DNA of 64,000 bases from Candidatus Nanopelagicales bacterium (GTDB taxonomy: Bacteria; Actinomycetota; Actinomycetes; S36-B12). The first letter of the stretch is position 1, and each line of letters begins with the position of its first letter. The DNA is taken from NCBI GenBank assembly GCA_018402235.1, contig JAGYJJ010000005.1, positions 346,561-410,560 of the forward strand. Reading direction: 5' to 3'. Of this stretch, positions 17,624 through 64,000 are shown piece by piece. The notes beneath the pieces are model-generated. The model did not search any database. It was not told the origin of the DNA and saw only the letters and a program-made list of their open reading frames with translations. Both the position numbers and the translations under genes were made by a program.

Positions 17624-18376
17624 GTGACAACCACGTTGGCGATCGACTGCGGAGGCGGTGGCCTCAAGGCATCGGTGCTCGACGAAACCGGCACTATGCG
17701 CGCGCAACCGGTGCGTGTTCCCACTCCTTACCCGCTGCCACCGTCGTTGTTCGTCAAAACGCTCACCGAACTCTCCGAGCAATTGCCCAAAGCAGATCGC
17801 GCAACGGTCGGAATGCCCGGGATGATCCGCCACGGAGTGGTGGTCACCACCCCGCACTACATAACTCGATCTGGTCCACGCACGCGCATCGATCCGGAGT
17901 TGGTGCCGCAGTGGGAGGGCTTCGATGCAGAGGCGGCTTTGTCCGATGCGCTCGGTATTCCCGCACGCGTGTTGAACGATGCTGAAGTGCACGGCGCTGG
18001 AGTTGTCGCGGGCCAAGGTCTGGAACTGGTTCTCACCCTCGGCACCGGTCTGGGATGCGCGATCTTTGATGGGGGCCGTCTTGCTCCGCATCTGGAAATG
18101 TCGCAGGCCCCTGTCCGCTGGGGCTTGAGTTACGACAACTACATCGGCGAGCACGAACGAAAGCGACTCGGTGATGCCCTGTGGTCGCGGCGCATCGGGC
18201 GCGTTGTCGATGTACTTCGTCCGGTGTTCTTGTGGGATCGGCTTTACCTCGGCGGCGGAAACGCGCGCCATATCACTCCAACCGTGCTGGCCAAACTCGG
18301 CGACGAAGTTGTCATCGTCCCGAACTCTGCCGCACTCGCCGGTGGCGCGCGGGCATGGCAACTGCAGACCGACTAA
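17624..18376 (+). CDS. ROK family sugar kinase (polyphosphate glucokinase-like)
   Basis: AIDCGGGGLK, GMPG, LNDAEVHG, LTLGTGLG, LYLGGGN. Confidence 0.9.
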   Translation: MTTTLAIDCGGGGLKASVLDETGTMRAQPVRVPTPYPLPPSLFVKTLTELSEQLPKADRATVGMPGMIRHGVVVTTPHYITRSGPRTRIDPELVPQWEGFDAEAALSDALGIPARVLNDAEVHGAGVVAGQGLELVLTLGTGLGCAIFDGGRLAPHLEMSQAPVRWGLSYDNYIGEHERKRLGDALWSRRIGRVVDVLRPVFLWDRLYLGGGNARHITPTVLAKLGDEVVIVPNSAALAGGARAWQLQTD

Positions 18377-19410
18377 AACCCGCCAACCCACCGAAGCCCC
18401 GCAACCCACAGACCGTGGGCGTGGTGATGTACCTGGTCGCCGCATTCTTGTTCGCGGTCAACGGTGTTCTAGCGAAGTCTGCAATCGAGGTTGGCCTGTC
18501 GCCGCTTCGGCTGACCGAATTGCGTAACGCGGGTTCGATGGTGCTGTTGGTGATCGTGGTCTTGATCGTGCGCCCGCGTGCCTTCCGAGTTACCAAAAGG
18601 GAGATCCCCTTCTTGGTCGCCTATGGAGTTATCGCTTTCACGTTGGTGCAGTTCTTGTACTTCTTCACCATCTCAAGGCTGCCGGTGGGAATCGGGACGC
18701 TGCTCGCCTTCTTAGCGCCGATCGTGGTTGCGCTTTACGTCAAGTTTTTTCGCAAGCAACCGGTGCGTGATCGCATTTGGCTGGCAATCGCGCTGACACT
18801 CATCGGTCTGGCCTTGATGGCGCAGGTATGGCTCGGGGCAACACTCGACGCCGTCGGTGTGGCCGCGGGATTGCTACTCGCATTCGCCTTAGCGCTCTAT
18901 TGGATTCTTGGTGAGTCCGGCCAAAGTCACCGCGATGCGCTATCGCTGACGATGTGGGGCTTCATCTTTTCCACCATCACCTGGTCGATCATCGCGCCAT
19001 GGACGAGCTTCCCGTACGAAATCCTCGGTCGCACTGCCGCACCTATGGTCGATGGGTGGCCAGGAATTCCGGTGTGGTTGATCATGACGCTCGGCGTTGT
19101 CCTGGGAACCGTCACGCCGTTCTTACTGGTACTCGGCTCACTGCGACGCCTGGGTGCAGCGCGGTCAGGCATCATCGGGACCACCGAGCCGGTGTGGGCT
19201 GCTCTGCTAGCCATGGCACTTCTCGGTGAAATGCTCACTCCCATCCAGGGCATTGGTGGCCTCATCGTCGTTGCCGGAATCATCGTCGCCGAGACAGCGC
19301 GACCTCAACAGATCACAACCGGGGAGTTCCCGGTTCCGCAAGAACCTGACGCACTCGACGACGAGTTCGACGAGTTCGACGACGGGCCGGTGGCGGAGCC
19401 ACGTCCCTAA
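18355..19410 (+). CDS. EamA/DMT family transporter
   Basis: About 10 TM helices, LPVGI..LL.FLAP, TEPVWAA, LLGE.LT..Q. Confidence 0.9.
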   Translation: MATADRLKPANPPKPRNPQTVGVVMYLVAAFLFAVNGVLAKSAIEVGLSPLRLTELRNAGSMVLLVIVVLIVRPRAFRVTKREIPFLVAYGVIAFTLVQFLYFFTISRLPVGIGTLLAFLAPIVVALYVKFFRKQPVRDRIWLAIALTLIGLALMAQVWLGATLDAVGVAAGLLLAFALALYWILGESGQSHRDALSLTMWGFIFSTITWSIIAPWTSFPYEILGRTAAPMVDGWPGIPVWLIMTLGVVLGTVTPFLLVLGSLRRLGAARSGIIGTTEPVWAALLAMALLGEMLTPIQGIGGLIVVAGIIVAETARPQQITTGEFPVPQEPDALDDEFDEFDDGPVAEPRP

Positions 19411-19581
19411 CAACGCAGGTTCGTTGTTCCCTGCGGGGAGGTTCGTTGTTCCCTGCGGGGAGGTTCGCCGGTCCACGCGGGGAGGTTCGCGGATTCCCGC
19501 GGGGAGGTTCGTTGTTCCCTGCGGGGAGGTTCGCGGGTCCACGCGGGGAGGTTCGCGGGTCCACGCGGGGAGGTTCGCCGG
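19411..19581. repeat. 22-bp-period array: core GCGGGGAGGTTCG plus 9-nt variable spacers
   Basis: Perfect cores at 19433, 19455, 19477, 19499, 19521, 19543 and 19565, plus a degenerate core at 19411; fills the whole gap between two convergent stop codons. Confidence 0.95.
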
Positions 19582-20664
19582 TTAGGGGCGGATGAGGCTG
19601 GATTCGCGCACGATCAGGTACGACGGGACGACGTGAACGCGGGGTTCACGATCAGCGCTTGCCGGACCTTCGGCGGCGTCGTCGTCTGCGATTCGCTCGA
19701 ACAGCAATTCGGCGGCGCGAACGCCAATGGCCCGAGGGTCTTGCGCCACAACGGTTATCGCCGGGTCGAGCATGTCGGCCAACGCGAAATCGTCGTAGCC
19801 CACCAGCGCGATCTGGTGGTGGAGATCCGCTTCGCGCAGGGCACGGAAAACTCCCATGGCAAGAAGATTTTGCGCGGCGAAAATCGCAGTTGGCCGCTCA
19901 CCTGTCGCCAACAATCGACGTATGACATCGGTTGCAGCGTCGGCGTTGTGCAGGTTGCGGTGCACCCACTCCTGATGCACCGCGAGCCCGGCACCCGAGA
20001 GCGCGTCCAGATATCCCTCGTAGCGTTCCTGGGCGGTATCCAGGCGCAAACTGCCGCCGAGGAAGGCGATGTCGCGATGTCCGGCATCGAGCAGGTGGCG
20101 CACACCCTCGCGCGCGCCTTCTCGGTTGTTCGTCAAGACGCAATCGGCGGCCACGCCCCGGGGTGCACGATCGACGAACACCCAGGGCACGCCGATATTG
20201 CGTTCATTCCACAGTGCATTCTGATCGACTCCCGAGGGGACCACCACGAGTCCGTCGACCCTGCGTGAGGTGAAGGCGCGCACGACATCGCGCTCGCGGA
20301 CGGGGTCCTCGGCAATGCTCGCGGTCAGGACCGCCATGTTGCGACCGCGCGCGGCCTCCTCGACGCCGGCATGCACCGCCGCCGAGAACTCATTGGCAAC
20401 GTCCTCGACCATGAGCCCGACGGTGGAGGTGCGTCGGTCGGCCCGCCGGAGGTTGCTGGCGGTGAAGTCGGGGCGGTAGTCGAGTTGATCGGCCGCTCGC
20501 TGCACCTTCGAGACCAGCGCGGTCGAAACACCGGGCTCACGATTGATGACGCGTGAAACCGTTTTCAGGCTGACCCCGGCGAGGGCCGCGACGTCCCGCA
20601 TCGTGGAACGTCGATGGGGCAACGCAGGAGGTTGTGAAGACCCCCCTTGTGACAACGTTGTCAT
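19582..20664 (-). CDS. LacI-family transcriptional regulator
   Basis: TMRDVAALAGVSLKTVSRVIN HTH, VFVDR, ALVGYDD, ITVVAQDP. Confidence 0.95.
   Translation of the reverse strand: MTTLSQGGSSQPPALPHRRSTMRDVAALAGVSLKTVSRVINREPGVSTALVSKVQRAADQLDYRPDFTASNLRRADRRTSTVGLMVEDVANEFSAAVHAGVEEAARGRNMAVLTASIAEDPVRERDVVRAFTSRRVDGLVVVPSGVDQNALWNERNIGVPWVFVDRAPRGVAADCVLTNNREGAREGVRHLLDAGHRDIAFLGGSLRLDTAQERYEGYLDALSGAGLAVHQEWVHRNLHNADAATDVIRRLLATGERPTAIFAAQNLLAMGVFRALREADLHHQIALVGYDDFALADMLDPAITVVAQDPRAIGVRAAELLFERIADDDAAEGPASADREPRVHVVPSYLIVRESSLIRP
20650..20663. promoter_or_regulatory. LacI-type operator 1, overlapping the regulator start
   Basis: Perfect palindrome TGACAACGTTGTCA with central CG. Confidence 0.8.
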
Positions 20665-20753
20665 CCCCACCTTCCCCGTCGCCGATCGGGCAATTCAGTC
20701 CGAAGTCGGTCATATTCGGTCACCGGAACCGTGTCTTACCGGATTACATGCCG

Positions 20754-32294: not shown

Positions 32295-32345
32295 GTTCCG
32301 CGGGAAAGTTCCGCGGGAAGGTTACGCGGGAAGGTTACGTGGAAG
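32295..32345. repeat. 13-bp tandem repeat over the NlpC/P60 stop codon
   Basis: GTTCCGCGGGAAA-GTTCCGCGGGAAG-GTTACGCGGGAAG-GTTACGTGGAAG. Confidence 0.85.
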
Positions 32346-33098
32346 GACGCGTCCCATTCCGGTGTAACTGCGCCCCCACCACGATCCGGCGATCGGATTG
32401 ACCTTAACTTTCTCTCCTGAGTTGGGAGCGTCGATCATCTTGCCGTCGCCGATATAGATGCCCACATGCCGCGCACCGTTTTCAAAGAAGAAGACGAGAT
32501 CGCCGGGGCGGGCGTCTTTCTTCGAGATGCGCTCGACCCGCTGGTACTGGTTCACCGAGGATCGACCGATCTCTATTCCCAGGGCACGGCGGTAGACGAA
32601 CGACGTGAACCCGCCGCAGTCGAAGGCATGCGGCCCAGCGGCGCCGGCCCGATAGGGCGTTCCGATCTTGTTTCGTGCCACGCGCATGATGTCCGCCCGA
32701 ATCGACGCCACCTGAGCAACCTGCTGGGCTTCAACCAAGGCGACCGTGCGCTGGGTCATCGACTCCGCGTCAAAAGCCGTCACGCGAGGGTGCAATCCCA
32801 CCTTCGAGCCAGCCAACCGATCGGCGCTCACCACCTGCGCCGAGGCGGCGTTCGCCGCGGATGGAACGGCCGAGGCCAGCGCCCAGACCAGCGCCGCTGC
32901 CAATGCAACCGCCACTCCGGAGATGCCCACGGAAATCGACGACTCCCGGAATCGCCGACCCTCTGCCGAAGAATCCGAGCCCGCCCGGCCGGTGCGCAGG
33001 GAAGTACGCACGGATGAGACGGGCTGCCGTGTCTGCTCGGCCCGTGTCTGCTCGGCCCGTGCCTTCTCGGCCCGTGTCTGCTCGGTTCGTGTCCTCAT
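32322..33098 (-). CDS. NlpC/P60 (C40) peptidoglycan peptidase; start uncertain
   Basis: GTPY, FDCGGF, PGDLVFF, HVGIYIGDG.MI.A; TM/signal segment. Confidence 0.92.
   Translation of the reverse strand: MRTRTEQTRAEKARAEQTRAEQTRQPVSSVRTSLRTGRAGSDSSAEGRRFRESSISVGISGVAVALAAALVWALASAVPSAANAASAQVVSADRLAGSKVGLHPRVTAFDAESMTQRTVALVEAQQVAQVASIRADIMRVARNKIGTPYRAGAAGPHAFDCGGFTSFVYRRALGIEIGRSSVNQYQRVERISKKDARPGDLVFFFENGARHVGIYIGDGKMIDAPNSGEKVKVNPIAGSWWGRSYTGMGRVLPRNLPA
33027..33093. repeat. 15-bp tandem repeat at the NlpC/P60 5' end
   Basis: CCGTGTCTGCTCGGC x4 with variants; reads RAEQT repeats on the minus strand. Confidence 0.85.
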
Positions 33099-35163: not shown

Positions 35164-35254
35164 TGCGTGCTTGTTGACTGCGTGCTTGTTGACTGCGTGC
35201 TTGTTGACTGTGTGACGTGTGCTTGTTGACTGCGTGCGTGTTCACTGTGTGCGT
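35164..35254. repeat. 15-bp tandem repeat between the kinase and GerMN genes
   Basis: TGCGTGCTTGTTGAC x3 perfect plus degenerate copies, abutting the GerMN ATG. Confidence 0.9.
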
Positions 35255-35286
35255 GCGCGGGCGATTCCCGGCAGCGCGCACGCGCA

Positions 35287-36655: not shown

Positions 36656-37336
36656 TCAGGCCTTCATGCGATACCCGAAACCGCGCACCGTGAGCAGCAG
36701 TTCGGGGTTAGCCGGATCATCTTCGATCTTGTTGCGCAGTCGGTAGATGAGGTTGTCGACCACGCGGCCATCTCCCGCGTTTCCGTACCCCCATACCTTG
36801 CGCAGCAGATGATCTCGGCTGAGTACGCGGCCCTTCGCGCCGATCAATTCCGCGAGCACGAAGAACTCAATACGCGACACTGGCACCGGTTCGCCGTTCC
36901 GCATAACCTCTGCGGTGTCTGGGTGAAGTTCGATCGGACCGCAGACGAGTTCTTCCTCGGACTCCTCCGGCTGCGACGAGCGTCGAAGCTGCGTGCGAAT
37001 GCGCGCCATCAATTCCTTGGCGACGAATGGCTTGGTGACGTAATCGTCGGCTCCTGCCTCCAGACCGGCCACCACATCGTGGCTGTCGGTCTGCGCGGTC
37101 ACGATGATGATCGGCACCTGGCTGGTGGCCCGCAGGCTGCGCACGAGGTCCAGGCCGTGGATTCCCGGGAGCCGAAGGTCCACGAGCACCACATCGGGCT
37201 GCTCGTCTTGGACGATCACCAGGCCCTGCTCCGCGGTGCTAGCTTCGAGAACCCGGTAGCCCTCATCCTCGAGGTTGGTCCGCAGGACCATCCGGATGGC
37301 GTCGTCGTCCTCGACGACCATGACGGTGCGGATCAT
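36656..37336 (-). CDS. OmpR-family response regulator
   Basis: VEDD, DLRLP, GADDYVTKPF, RLRNKIE, TVRGFGY. Confidence 0.96.
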   Translation of the reverse strand: MIRTVMVVEDDDAIRMVLRTNLEDEGYRVLEASTAEQGLVIVQDEQPDVVLVDLRLPGIHGLDLVRSLRATSQVPIIIVTAQTDSHDVVAGLEAGADDYVTKPFVAKELMARIRTQLRRSSQPEESEEELVCGPIELHPDTAEVMRNGEPVPVSRIEFFVLAELIGAKGRVLSRDHLLRKVWGYGNAGDGRVVDNLIYRLRNKIEDDPANPELLLTVRGFGYRMKA

Positions 37337-37447
37337 CGCTACCGCTCAACCCCTCAGCTAGCTGGCGGCCCGAAGGCCGTCGTGCGTATCGACCTATCAG
37401 ACCTCGTGATCACCCCAACCCTACCTGCGACACACCTGCGACATACG

Positions 37448-37570
37448 CGAACCGCCCTATTCCCACCCGCGAACCTCCCCGCCTGGACCCGCGAACCTCC
37501 CCGCGTGGACCCGCGAACCTCCCCGCGTGGACCCGCGAACCTCCCCGCGTGGACCCGCGAACTGCCACAT
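37448..37570. repeat. 22-bp-period array, same family as 19411-19581, opposite orientation
   Basis: CGAACCTCCCCGC at 37470, 37492, 37514 and 37536; degenerate cores at 37448 and 37558; spacers (C/G)TGGACCCG. Confidence 0.95.
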
Positions 37571-37709
37571 TTCGCAGGTCGAGTTGCCAATTTCCGATTT
37601 TCGAAGCCCTCGGCATCACCTTTCCACGACTGGCAACCTCCCGTTCGCCCGCGGTTCCCGACAACGACGTAACCTCCCGAGTGAACGCCCCCAAGGAAGC
37701 AGGTCTGCA

Positions 37710-38477
37710 GTGACGACGATCTCCGTGTGCATTCCAGCACGCAATGAGGAGTCGACCGTGGCCGCTCTGGTTCGTGCGGTCCGCCAGCATCCGCGCGCCG
37801 ACGAGGTGATCGTCATGGATCACGCCTCGCAGGACGCCACCGCGTGCCTCGCCCGGGATGCCGGTGCGCACGTCATTTCCGCCAACGACGTCCTCCCGGA
37901 ATTCGGCCCCGCCCTCGGAAAGGGCGACGTGCTGTGGCGTTCGGTGCATGCGGCCCGCGGCGATGTGATCGTCTGGCTTGACGCCGATCTGCGCTCCTAC
38001 AGCCACGAATATTTGACGAAATTGATCGAACCTTTGGACAACGACAACCCCACCGACCATGCCATCGCGCTCGTGCGTCCGGATTACCCACGCACCCTCG
38101 ATGGTCAACCGACCGGTGGTGGACGCGTCACCGAGCGCACAGCCAAGCCCGCATTGCGCACCTGGCATCCGCATCTGGCTCATATCCGCCAGCCGCTCGC
38201 TGGTGAATACGCCATCCGCCGCGAGGTGGCACAAGCACTTCCCTTCGAAATCGACTACGGCGTTGAGATCGGCTTGCTGATCGACGTTGCAGCTGCCTAC
38301 GGCACTAACTCAATTGCACAAGTGGCGCTGCCTGCCCGCATTCACCGCAATCGACCCGACAGCGAACTCGCAGAACCATCGAGGCAAGTCCTGCGCACGG
38401 CACTCAGCCGGGCTGGCCTGACGATGGCACACGCTCGGCCACCTCTGAACGTGGTTCGACCCCTGGCCATGGCCTAG
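37710..38477 (+). CDS. gpgS: Glucosyl-3-phosphoglycerate synthase-like GT2 protein
   Basis: SVCIPARNEE, GKGDVLWRS, DAD, GGRVTE, QPLAGEYA, YGVEIGLLID, HRN. Confidence 0.85.
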   Translation: MTTISVCIPARNEESTVAALVRAVRQHPRADEVIVMDHASQDATACLARDAGAHVISANDVLPEFGPALGKGDVLWRSVHAARGDVIVWLDADLRSYSHEYLTKLIEPLDNDNPTDHAIALVRPDYPRTLDGQPTGGGRVTERTAKPALRTWHPHLAHIRQPLAGEYAIRREVAQALPFEIDYGVEIGLLIDVAAAYGTNSIAQVALPARIHRNRPDSELAEPSRQVLRTALSRAGLTMAHARPPLNVVRPLAMA

Positions 38478-43337: not shown

Positions 43338-43395
43338 CACTTTCCGCCAGCCCTCTGGCCGATCGACCGTCAATCCGCCAGACCCTGGCGGAAAG
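43338..43395. repeat. REP/MITE-like palindromic element, copy 2 (internally deleted)
   Basis: CACTTTCCGCCAG...TCTGGCCGA...ACCGTCAATCCGCCAGACCCTGGCGGAAAG shares both ends and an internal segment with 27214-27302. Confidence 0.8.
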
Positions 43396-43429
43396 ACGGT
43401 CATCTCGCCACCCTGGTTCACTGGGTGCC

Positions 43430-62355: not shown

Positions 62356-62649
62356 ATGGCAAAGAAGTTGGATCCCGTCACACCGGGGGAGATCCTTGCG
62401 GAGGATTTCCTCGCACCGATGGGTATCACCAAGTACCGACTGGCGAAGGAGATCGACGTTCCACCGCAGCGAATCGGCGACATCGTGGCGGGGAAACGAT
62501 CGATTACCGCCGACACCGATCTGCGGCTATGCACGTTCTTCGGCTTGACCGAGGGCTACTGGCTTCGTGCACAAGTGGCGCACGACATCGAGGTGGCAAA
62601 GCGCGACCTCAAGCCGCAATTGGCGCGCATCCAGCCGTGGTCCGCCTAG
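62356..62649 (+). CDS. higA: HigA family antitoxin
   Basis: PGEIL.EDFL.PMGIT.YRLAK, RI..IV.GKRSITADT.LRL..FFG....YWL..Q. Confidence 0.93.
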   Translation: MAKKLDPVTPGEILAEDFLAPMGITKYRLAKEIDVPPQRIGDIVAGKRSITADTDLRLCTFFGLTEGYWLRAQVAHDIEVAKRDLKPQLARIQPWSA

Positions 62650-64000
62650 CCGAACAACACACCCGGATTCATCAACCCCTGCGGATCCCACGCATTCTTG
62701 ATCGCGCGCATCGCCGCGATCTCCGCTGCGGTGCGCGACAAATCCAAATGCCCGGCTTTCAATCGCCCGATTCCGTGCTCGGCCGAGATCGATCCGCCAT
62801 AGCGCGCCACGCACTCCAACACGGCAACATCCACCGATTCATCGCTCTCGTTGGGCCCGGCGAATTCCACATGCAGATTCCCGTCGGCCACATGACCGAA
62901 GATGCCGAATTCACTCACCGAATCAGCGTCAGTCAACAACGCGTTCAACTCATCCGCGCACGCCGGCAATACCGGCAGCGGCACCGACACATCGAGTTTG
63001 TGGATCACACCCGAGCGTGCCGAACGCTTCAGCTTGCCGCTCGCGGTATTCCCATAGTCGTTCGATTTCGCGCGCATCTAAACCGACAACCACGTCCCGA
63101 TCCTCCAGCACCTCCGGCAACGAAACCATCTCCGCCGCCACCATCGGCCACTTCGAGCAACGCGAACAGCGGCCACTCACCGGCCAGCGGATACGGAAGA
63201 TCACCCACCGCCTGCACCAACCTCATGCCCGTTGCATCAATCACTTCAGCGGCAACAAGCGTGGCCGACGCTGCGGTGTGCGTGATCGTCAGGGCGTCGT
63301 CGTAATTCGGAACATCCGATCAACGCAATCGATGTGCGCCCAGCGGGGCGATGAAGACGCACCCGCACCGCAGTGATGATCGCAAGCGACCCTTCCGACC
63401 CGCATAGCAACTGCGCCAGATCGAAACCCGTGTTGTCCTTCGCCAGGCCAGACATGTGGGAGATCACCGAGCCGTCGGGCAGTACCGCTTCGATGCCGCA
63501 TACCTGCGCGCGCGTCATGCCGTAGGCCAGGACCCGAATGCCGCCGGCGTTGGTGGCAACCGTTCCACCGACCGTCGCGGTATCGCGCGCGGCCAAGTCC
63601 ACGCCGTATTCCCAGCCAGCCAAACGCGCCGCGCGCTGCACATCCCCCAACGTTGCGCCGGCCCCCGCGGACACCTGGCCGGACAACGCATCCACCGGAT
63701 CGATCCAGGACAGCCGCCGCATCGACACGATCACCGGCAATCCCCCACCCCCGCGAACCTCCCCGCCTGAACCATCGAACCTCCCCGGCGCGGGCACCGA
63801 ACCTCCCACCAGCCCGGTGTTCCCTCCCTGCGGTAACACCGGAACGCCAGCAGCCGCGCACGCCCGCATCACTGCAGACACTTCGTCCACCGACCCCGGA
63901 CGCACCACCGCCAGCGCCGGCCCACCGAACCGCCTGGACCAGTCGATGCAATACGGCTCCATCAATTCCGCGGTATCGAGAACCTGGGAATCCCCCACGA
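62646..64000 (-). CDS. FAD-binding oxidoreductase, GlcD/D-2-hydroxyacid dehydrogenase family (5' end outside the window; several frameshifts)
   Basis: PQGGNTGLVGGSVP, GG.VATNAGG, KDNTGFDL, GSEG.L, KLDVSVP, GHVADGNLH, SAEHGIG, DP.G.MNPG. Confidence 0.92.
63754..63810. repeat. Third 22-bp-period array, inside the oxidoreductase CDS
   Basis: CGAACCTCCCCGC (63754), CGAACCTCCCCGG (63776), CGAACCTCCCACC (63798). Confidence 0.8.

Follow-up and report, generated by a model that had tools for sequence, protein, structure and literature searches.

Phased 22-bp repeat arrays in a Candidatus Nanopelagicales genome and a linked wHTH-DUF559 nuclease gene: a possible counterpart of the REP-repeat/transposase partnership

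How does a short DNA word come to be repeated at a strict 22-bp step until it fills the whole space between two genes, and what, if anything, tends such an array? The question is raised by positions 19411-19581 of a 64,000-nucleotide stretch of a Candidatus Nanopelagicales genome, here called the window (C4:346561-410560 of the host genome G000, which comprises 2.2 Mb in 5 contigs at 61% GC). On the plus strand, a degenerate core, CAACGCAGGTTCG, at 19411-19423 is followed by seven exact copies of the 13-bp core GCGGGGAGGTTCG, all in direct orientation, which begin at 19433, 19455, 19477, 19499, 19521, 19543 and 19565, that is, at a step of 22 bp. The spacers read, in order, TTGTTCCCT, TTGTTCCCT, CCGGTCCAC, CGGATTCCC, TTGTTCCCT, CGGGTCCAC and CGGGTCCAC, and the array ends in CCGG, after which comes a TTA at 19582. 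An EamA-family transporter ORF (18181-19410, plus strand; Pfam EamA, E 4.1e-31) abuts the array with its TAA stop at 19408-19410, and a LacI-family regulator ORF (19582-20670, minus strand; Pfam LacI/Peripla_BP) has its stop at 19582-19584, 4 nt past the last core. The two stops adjoin both edges of the array, so the convergent gap is wholly filled, just as a first-pass annotation of this DNA had described it, with its seven perfect cores and one degenerate core. With up to one mismatch allowed, the core has 13 matches in the window against 0.34 expected, and none of 100 shuffles reached 13. An Rfam search of 19300-19700 returned no match above the gathering score.

The same annotation had noted that the spacer types are interleaved, and had held this to be more than slippage of a single unit could well explain. 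Tandem Repeats Finder (TRF) reports a period of 22 (7.5 copies) together with a period of 66 (2.3 copies, 94% match), which is a higher-order repeat of three units. The interleaving of the spacers thus follows from the duplication of a three-unit block, and the argument against slippage is weakened to that extent. As for the reality of the array, Logan contigs from four runs belonging to four studies (a salt lake, lake water, a soda lake, and a fourth with no label beyond “metagenome”) enter it at both sides, for example over 18898-19484 and 19549-20300 in run X1, and none of the contigs of these runs spans it whole. The array is therefore real, its edges being supported by contigs of all four runs; the count of seven plus one stands without independent support, because no contig bridges the array.

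Two further loci with the same core and period had been pointed out in the window. Both are real, with their cores on the minus strand, and their settings had to be corrected. The second array (37446-37612, minus strand) consists of one GGGCGG-variant unit, four exact cores at 37470-37548, and two or three units of a further core type that have decayed (CGCGAACTGCCAC, CGAGTTGCCAA). An OmpR-type response regulator (36656-37336, minus strand; Pfam Response_reg and Trans_reg_C) faces it with its start, which places the array in a divergent, promoter-bearing gap; the ORF on the other side (37527-38477, plus strand) is a family 2 glycosyltransferase whose Glycos_transf_2 domain begins at residue 66, the true start being probably later than the annotated one. 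The third array (63754-63810, minus strand) has three units, with one exact core and one core of a single mismatch at 63754-63788, and lies in frame inside a coding sequence, where it encodes ...PGRFDGSGGEVRGGGG.... The ORF that holds it is a FAD-linked oxidase (63246-64000, minus strand; Pfam FAD_binding_4, E 7.2e-31, residues 48-198) that continues past the end of the window (L245:1307-2116, minus strand). The orthologue in a related species, G001, carries at this place an insert of equal length made of other core types, and paralogues of the oxidase are found without the insert.

A scan of the whole genome for the core, as the first-pass annotation had proposed, yields 75 exact and 31 one-mismatch matches. 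There are 22 arrays of at least two units on three contigs, 107 units in total, in direct or inverted arrangement: 16 are direct (3-10 units) and the other 6 are inverted stacks, in which minus-strand units precede plus-strand units. Successive cores on the same strand are 22 bp apart in 76 of 78 pairs, and the genome has 29 runs of three or more GTTCG spaced at 20-24, where the reversed motif gives a single such run. The full unit has the consensus GCGGGGAGGTTCGCCGGTCCAG. The description as constant core and variable spacer holds for the core; the 9-nt spacer has a consensus of its own, CCGGTCCAG, and unit positions 16 and 18-20, which lie within it, are 79-93% conserved genome-wide. There are 42 distinct spacers among 76, of which 4 are common to different loci. 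The spacer is thus the weaker half of a 22-bp unit and not free sequence. The core is not self-complementary, and hairpins arise only where units are paired in inverted order. Many array ends show C-rich sequence as a leader ahead of the first CGCGAAC and G-rich sequence as a trailer behind the last GTTCGCG; along contig C3 the array strands are interleaved. Within C3:234773-234953, homopolymer length is the only difference between some units. A search of genome contigs and of metagenome contigs for the exact double-core pattern found 0 loci, a figure that is no measure of rarity, as the source genome itself may be masked.

The host is an uncultured member of the Actinomycetota from salt or soda lakes, with MDMPI_N, PknB-PASTA and NrdR as Pfam markers, and the nearest named ClpX, at 83%, is that of an Actinomycetota MAG. 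The genus is represented here by 20 species genomes (G000 and 19 others). The core of G000 occurs in none of the other 19 species, and a search of 40 relatives for it at 22-bp spacing with up to two mismatches found one weak match only (G018). The relatives have arrays all the same, at the same sites and of the same design, with CGAAC plus 6 nt at a 21-22-bp period and different 6-mers. Shared sites and shared design combined with different 6-mers mean that the units have been remodelled in place. In the EamA-LacI gap, G011 has 5+5 inverted units of CGCGAACTTGC with a 21-bp period, G008 and G010 have CTGCCC(G/T)TTCG at 22 bp, G005 has a short pair, and G001 is empty. The LacI ORF reads into the element in G005 and G011, and the C-rich leader encodes the PPPPS tail of the G008 LacI ORF. 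In the valS-clpX gap, 8 of the 10 relatives that have both flanks on one contig carry an inverted stack, mostly of 3+3 units; of the remaining two, G018 has three direct TTGCGC units and G012 decayed ones. The 6-mers at this site are TGCCAA (G001, G002, G013), AGGGCAG (G008, G017), GCGGGCAG (G007) and TTGCGC/TTGCAG (G011, G005), and CTCCCC is also present. Between G008 and G017, and again between G001 and G013, the cores have been kept and the spacers largely replaced. TRF found no array of 21-22-bp period behind clpX among 80 ClpX-matched loci. As the relatives are only 70-87% identical, no target-site duplication is readable at the array sites.

One of these sites lies within a gene. The array at C3:1257043 sits in frame in putA, between ...HLHSYGTW and ADYQRSWDEYFSLEHDP, and contigs of runs X4 and X5 join cores to both of its putA flanks. 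Exactly the same place is occupied in eight relatives by 3-5 units, whose core types vary; outgroup PutA proteins (14-16 sequences) have only a linker of 8-12 residues there. One genome can hold several core types: G001 has three, and in G011 the putA units are of the AGGGCA type as against TTGCGC at intergenic sites.

Arrays of this design are not universal in the genus. Three TTCG at 21-22-bp spacing give 12-62 matches in 14 of the 20 genomes, compared with 0-3 for the control, and the six array-poor species (G003, G004, G006, G014, G015, G019) give 2-6 matches that look coding-like. One of these, G003, retains a decayed 57-nt relic in putA, in which one spacer is still common with G018. In a tree of clpX fragments, from which G006 was missing and G001 had been dropped for its length, the five array-poor species form one clade with 100/100 support. 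Outside the genus, one genome among 65 from 15 other genera is array-rich, namely G100 of genus g23, which has 21 matches with the core TGCGCCAGTTCG at a 22-bp period. Since the array-poor species form a single clade, the independent contrasts of presence and absence come to two, this clade and G100.

What else is shared by the array-rich genomes? In several of them, inverted arrays recur at a distance of about 1 kb from each other, and the DNA enclosed in G000, G011, G005 and G100 contains homologous ORFs of about 270 residues. The G000 gene (C3:234958-235776, outside the window) is single-copy and encodes a 272-residue protein with a C-terminal match to Pfam DUF559 (PF04480; 22.7 bits against a cut-off of 20.6, E 9.3e-5), to which the orthologues in G011, G005 and G100 are 46, 47 and 37% identical. 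The order of elements in the slot is the stop of a Peripla_BP_6 gene, a GC hairpin, the C-rich leader, CGAAC units, about 120 nt containing CCACAGG, the nuclease gene, GTTCG units, the G-rich trailer and the convergent stop of an ABC_tran gene. This slot is syntenic in 10 species of the genus and in G100, whose nuclease gene lies between the same Peripla_BP_6 and ABC_tran neighbours. With the gene read forward, CGAAC units stand upstream and GTTCG units downstream at 8 of 11 loci by a crude count, and at 10 of 11 when the flanks themselves are read. A linked nuclease, one of the things the first-pass annotation had advised looking for, is thus present, bracketed by inverted arrays and co-occurring with them; an HUH transposase or a reverse transcriptase, which it had also named, is not what we found. 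RAYT (PF01797) has no match in G000 or in any of the 20 genus genomes, in a search whose positive control matched in 6 of 14 known genomes, and the reverse transcriptase domain RVT_1 was not found in G000. One ORF with an rve domain exists in G000 (C4:79043), with no array beside it. A MDMPI_N/DinB_2 gene that is also enclosed by inverted arrays (G000 C3:1282613-1283407; G005 C19) was considered and set aside, as it is not a homologue of the nuclease.

Of the 14 array-rich species, 10 have a close orthologue of the gene (E <= 1e-70). In the other four, which are MAGs of 75-82% completeness, none was detected: G007, G008 and G013 have distant paralogues only and G016 has none. No match to the nuclease at E <= 1e-5 was found in any of the six array-poor species, and there was none in the 5 array-less species of genus g23. 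The array-poor species retain the slot as about 300 nt without the nuclease ORF, and tblastn of four orthologues against the syntenic slot in five of them gave nothing better than E 0.14. Among 71 genomes of the family, matches at E <= 1e-50 are confined to the six sampled members of the genus and G100, the next best being 1.5e-44. NCBIfam has no name for the G000 protein. At E <= 1e-5 there are 166 homologues, in Nanopelagicales, Microbacterium, Nocardioides and Mycobacterium, many of which combine AbiEi_1 or AbiEi_4 with DUF559 or MTES_1575 and bear an endonuclease or Vsr annotation; close homologues are often found on contigs of about 1.1 kb. The G000 protein has no N-terminal Pfam match of its own, where homologues have PF09407 or PF13338. 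An AF2 model built with 61 sequences has a pLDDT of 93 and a pTM of 0.90. Its top Foldseek match is the catalytic domain of I-Bth0305I (3r3p), with a weak E of 7e-3, a probability of 1.0 and a TM on target of 0.75; the AbiEi antitoxin 6y8q ranks fourth (E 0.074, probability 0.91), and Vsr (1cw0/1vsr) is matched as well. In the alignment of the 61 sequences, the acidic residues D201 and D225 are invariant and E212 is nearly so. The predicted fold of the protein is a winged helix-turn-helix (wHTH), probably AbiEi-like, followed by a DUF559/Vsr-like PD-(D/E)XK nuclease domain.

Our preferred reading is that the arrays are the cognate DNA sites of this single-copy, vertically inherited and domesticated wHTH-DUF559 nuclease, in a relationship similar to that of REPIN and RAYT, with binding, cutting and repair-driven spread inferred from the genomic pattern; we would give it a probability of roughly 0.55. 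On this reading the wHTH domain would recognize a core of 11-13 bp, made up of the constant CGAAC and the lineage-specific 6-mer, and the 21-22-bp spacing of the sites, equal to two helical turns, would set the bound proteins on one face of the DNA. A nick or cut at the units could then be repaired through slippage, recombination or gene conversion between arrays. Such repair might expand and contract the arrays and homogenise the units within a genome, and it would allow a changed specificity to sweep through the resident copies. The inverted stacks would give long hairpins at the 3' ends of genes, which the host could possibly use as terminators. Part of the first-pass annotation, which had spoken of phased protein-binding sites or of units handled by a trans-acting factor, survives here in the 22-bp period and in the linked nuclease; its likening of the sites to iterons, if taken in the replication sense, does not, given 22 dispersed loci that include coding ones. 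Since a genome may hold several core types, one protein with one specificity would be insufficient for all of them, unless the older types are relics or are served by paralogues.

G000 has three distant paralogues of the nuclease gene, 31-33% identical, each in a C-rich...G-rich bracket between copies of a repeat of its own. Paralogue 2 has a hairpin bracket whose 13-mer finds 57 matches within one mismatch, in about 28 inverted pairs; paralogue 3 has a hairpin bracket of about 60 bp whose word has 11 matches within one mismatch; and paralogue 4 has TTCCGCCAG...CTGGCGGAA palindromes with a 9-mer of 63 exact matches, some of which are expected by chance. By these word counts, one of the repeat types is clearly dispersed genome-wide, and two are weakly so. 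In other species, 9 of 11 paralogue loci have words of at least 14 nt common to both flanks. The window itself holds tandem copies with a period of 30 (43343-43410, by TRF), outside the 22-bp family, whose consensus resembles the family bracketing paralogue 4; the likeness was judged by eye only, and they possibly belong to the same kind of system. There is also a wider and more tentative proposal, for which the chances seem to us somewhat short of even: that the large orphan family of actinobacterial “endonuclease domain-containing proteins” with an AbiEi-like wHTH and DUF559 consists of domesticated site-specific nucleases, each tending its own dispersed repeats, as a second and independent invention of the REPIN/RAYT type, whose activity would drive concerted evolution in place, even in coding frames. 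The 22-bp arrays would then be one such population.

The co-occurrence of gene and arrays is symmetric, and it fits equally well a nuclease gene that needs the repeats. The main rival to our reading takes this course. It holds that the arrays are autonomous REP-like hairpins and terminators, evolving by ordinary slippage and RecA-mediated ectopic conversion, and that the wHTH-DUF559 genes are the dependent party, either selfish in the manner of homing genes or merely persisting inside repeats. The valS-clpX inverted stacks of G000 are very stable, folding at -99.9 and -103.2 kcal/mol (z -10.7 and -11.7), and they are located where an outgroup MAG has a plain GC hairpin. Over 80 bp, direct arrays from separate loci reach 87-98% identity, which is sufficient for host recombination. 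The best fold match of the nuclease is a homing endonuclease, and direct duplicates of its own hairpin stand on either side of paralogue 3, as would be left after an insertion. However, a homing gene would be expected to scatter among the 22 arrays, and the nuclease is single-copy per repeat family and keeps to one slot in 10 species and G100. Conversion tracts should bring spacers along, yet the cores have stayed fixed while the neighbouring spacers were largely replaced. The arrays also persist, remodelled, in frame in putA and the FAD oxidase, where a terminator would be harmful, and the relic cores of putA have decayed in the clade without the nuclease. On balance, we regard this dependence of the gene on the repeats as rather unlikely.

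The genomic context of the arrays, sorted by codon-usage score and by Pfam matches on the flanks in G000, bears on another rival, in which the host itself selects phased sites for a regulator or nucleoid protein, or else RNA elements of the 3'-UTR such as Rho loading sites or mRNA stabilisers, and the nuclease is irrelevant. The strict 21-22-bp phase would suit such sites, as would the closeness to gene ends: about 18 of the 22 arrays touch the 3' end of a gene, a stop codon stands within 6 nt of the outermost core at 9 of the 22, and the C-rich strand mostly follows the neighbouring stop codon. As a side observation, among 13 such stops read at the array junctions 7 are TAA, as against 300 of 1645 genome-wide (binomial P 0.004). 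About 8 of the 22 arrays are in convergent gaps and about 10 in tandem ones, including trmD-rplS, but 3 are in divergent promoter gaps and 2 are inside coding frames (putA and the FAD oxidase, the latter first sorted as tandem and later as in-gene), and the orientation to the upstream gene is mixed, with C3:1325644 reading G-rich after the stop of an MFS gene. A terminator role cannot explain the in-frame putA copies; no T-run was seen 3' of the inverted stacks, so they have the GC hairpin of a canonical intrinsic terminator without its U-tract; for the direct arrays, folding of the C-rich strand is weak (z -2.2); and Rfam gives the valS-clpX element sub-threshold matches to miRNA precursors only. 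Moreover, the 6-mer differs at orthologous sites, which makes a conserved host factor unlikely. For the same reason, together with the mixed orientation, we rejected the C-rich strand as a Rho loading site, and likewise a mimicry of SD/anti-SD sequences by GGAGG/CCUCC, a likeness peculiar to G000, with other 6-mers in the relatives and an orientation that is not uniform. Selection by the host alone strikes us as improbable.

Two more explanations can be dealt with briefly. The first-pass annotation had suggested that the G-rich strand could form quadruplexes, and the G000 unit does place a GGGG every 22 nt, with a further GGG in many spacers; the relatives have the same architecture with cores that contain no G-runs (TTGGCAGTTCG, GCGCAAGTTCG, CTGCCCTTTCG), and a quadruplex as the selected feature is therefore very hard to credit. 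That the arrays are an artefact of a long-read MAG assembly, as the homopolymer-only unit differences noted above and the want of a contig across the window array might hint, can be all but dismissed, for the contigs from four runs and four studies also connect cores with the sequence beside other loci, and in the case of putA with both junctions, and short-read MAGs of 13 other species bear arrays of the same design.

If the nuclease does tend the arrays, a role would be found for a widespread orphan nuclease family, and enzyme-tended repeat populations would not be peculiar to HUH transposases. The arrays would offer a tractable case in which motifs of 11-13 bp evolve in concert at fixed chromosomal sites, in-frame linkers included, and enzyme engineers could be interested in a sequence-specific wHTH-nuclease whose 6-nt specificity block is modular. 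On the practical side, such arrays break short-read assemblies. In the literature searched, outside subscription journals, we came across no paper tying DUF559 or AbiEi-nucleases to repeats.

It is instructive to set the arrays beside the repeat systems that they call to mind. They are like CRISPR in that constant and variable segments alternate at a fixed period, but they are built of 13 + 9 bp, whereas CRISPR repeats measure about 23-50 bp and alternate with unique spacers of comparable length; their spacers recur and have a consensus, and they occupy 22 loci, some of them coding. Unlike iterons, they do not form one cluster at an origin and are dispersed between housekeeping genes on 3 contigs, as well as inside putA and the FAD oxidase. 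A MITE has terminal inverted repeats and a target-site duplication and is related to an autonomous IS; here, 6 of the 22 elements are inverted stacks bounded by a C-rich leader and a G-rich trailer, and at the 70-87% identity of the relatives no target-site duplication is readable. DNA uptake sequences (the DUS/USS dialects) are short motifs, homogeneous within a lineage and different by a few bases between lineages, and often stand as inverted pairs behind genes. The present units are phased in arrays, unlike those motifs, and at about 100 units in 22 loci they are far too sparse for the tagging of DNA for uptake. The Rickettsia palindromic elements (RPE) are repeats tolerated in frame inside protein-coding genes, and no enzyme is known to be associated with them. 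The in-frame copies in putA and the FAD oxidase resemble them in this respect; in sequence and in host the two are unrelated, and RPE are without periodic 22-bp units.

The enzyme, too, has its relatives. I-Bth0305I is described as a multidomain homodimeric homing endonuclease that covers about 60 bp in footprints and has a Vsr-like nuclease fold. It and the Vsr-like homing endonucleases are the likeness of our C-terminal domain, for which 3r3p is the best structural match. Unlike I-Bth0305I, the nuclease gene is in no intron or intein, its place is chromosomal and syntenic, and its N-terminal domain appears to be AbiEi-like, a likeness seen in the predicted fold and in the AbiEi_1 and AbiEi_4 Pfam matches of its homologues. 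The AbiEi antitoxin recognises repeats of about 23 bp, arranged as a pair, in the promoter of its own gene. By analogy, binding of this operator type would suit the CGAAC units that stand about 120 nt upstream of the nuclease gene. Here, however, the C-terminal half is a nuclease domain, and the sites are dispersed genome-wide.

The closest comparison is with the REP or BIME repeats and their RAYT transposase, the published REPIN/RAYT system. As in that system, the repeats here are dispersed and lineage-specific, form clusters of direct and inverted copies, and lie mostly at 3' ends; they flank the single copy of a vertically inherited, non-jumping enzyme gene; and they are absent or decayed where the enzyme is absent. 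The differences are equally plain. The non-palindromic 13-bp core in its strict 22-bp register is unlike the REP hairpin of 20-40 bp with a GTAG tag, and so are arrays of up to 10 units and copies in frame in proteins. The enzyme is a wHTH with a Vsr-like PD-(D/E)XK domain and not an HUH/Y1 transposase. A repeat family largely confined to genomes with such a nuclease gene, which is itself flanked by the repeats, suggests a new counterpart of the REP-repeat/transposase partnership.

At the gene ends that adjoin 22-bp arrays in the source genome (G000), the stop codon is TAA in seven of 13 cases, as against 18% genome-wide. Window 19408-19410 and 19582-19584 are examples of such array-adjacent stops, and in the relatives some of the flanking ORFs terminate within the C-rich leader of the element. 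Taken together, the TAA excess and these leader-borne ends suggest that the element may supply or shape the stop codons of neighbouring genes.

In the FAD-linked oxidase that carries array 3, the last "unit" of the array (window 63790-63810) consists of the Gly-Gly-Ser codons GGAGGTTCG, which are conserved in the oxidase, including that of the relative G001 (region L246), and match the 3' part of the G000 core exactly. Array 3 may have been seeded by a native sequence. The oxidase gene is split in the assembly (window 62646-64000, corresponding to L245:707-2116): one ORF encodes FAD_binding_4, and a second encodes FAD-oxidase_C, of which just the C-terminal half is present; the G001 orthologue is a single frame of 496 aa. 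The split represents either a frameshift or pseudogene, or else an indel error of long-read assembly.

The CCTCCCC units of array 2 are immediately adjoined, at window 37553-37612, by decayed units that belong to a second core type (CGCGAACTGCCAC, CGAGTTGCCAA). This second type is the dominant one at the valS-clpX and putA sites of three relatives (G001, G002 and G013). The juxtaposition of the decayed units with the CCTCCCC array suggests that the core types came in successive waves.

In the array 3' of the nuclease gene (G000 C3:234773-234953), most differences between units are single-base changes within C/G runs, which leave the units 20-22 bp long; these changes reflect either genuine decay or homopolymer errors from long-read assembly. 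In array-poor species, the slot that holds this gene elsewhere is occupied by a 14-bp tandem repeat, GGCCGATCGCGTAT, unlike the arrays; it lies immediately past the ABC_tran stop in both G014 (L242, C8), where it has at least six copies, and G006 (L240, C33). Nuclease paralogue 2, together with the hairpins on either side of it, directly adjoins a putative tRNA gene, recognised by eye, at G000 C3:1358410-1358560.

The window contains several other tandem repeats. A 9-bp repeat, CGACGAGTT, lies in frame in the C-terminal tail of EamA (19355-19384), and one sequencing run, X5, has an additional copy inserted behind position 19358. Short repeats are also found at 32295-32336 (13-bp GTTCCGCGGGAAG, 3.2 copies), 33027-33093 (15 bp, 4.5 copies) and 35164-35255 (15-, 22- and 37-bp arrays). 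A further repeat with a period of 30 (TCCGCCAGACCTCTGGCCGAAAGACCGTCAA) lies at 43343-43410; judged by eye only, its sequence seems similar to the TTCCGCCAG...CTGGCGGAA palindromes on either side of nuclease paralogue 4 (G000 C4:169603-170631).
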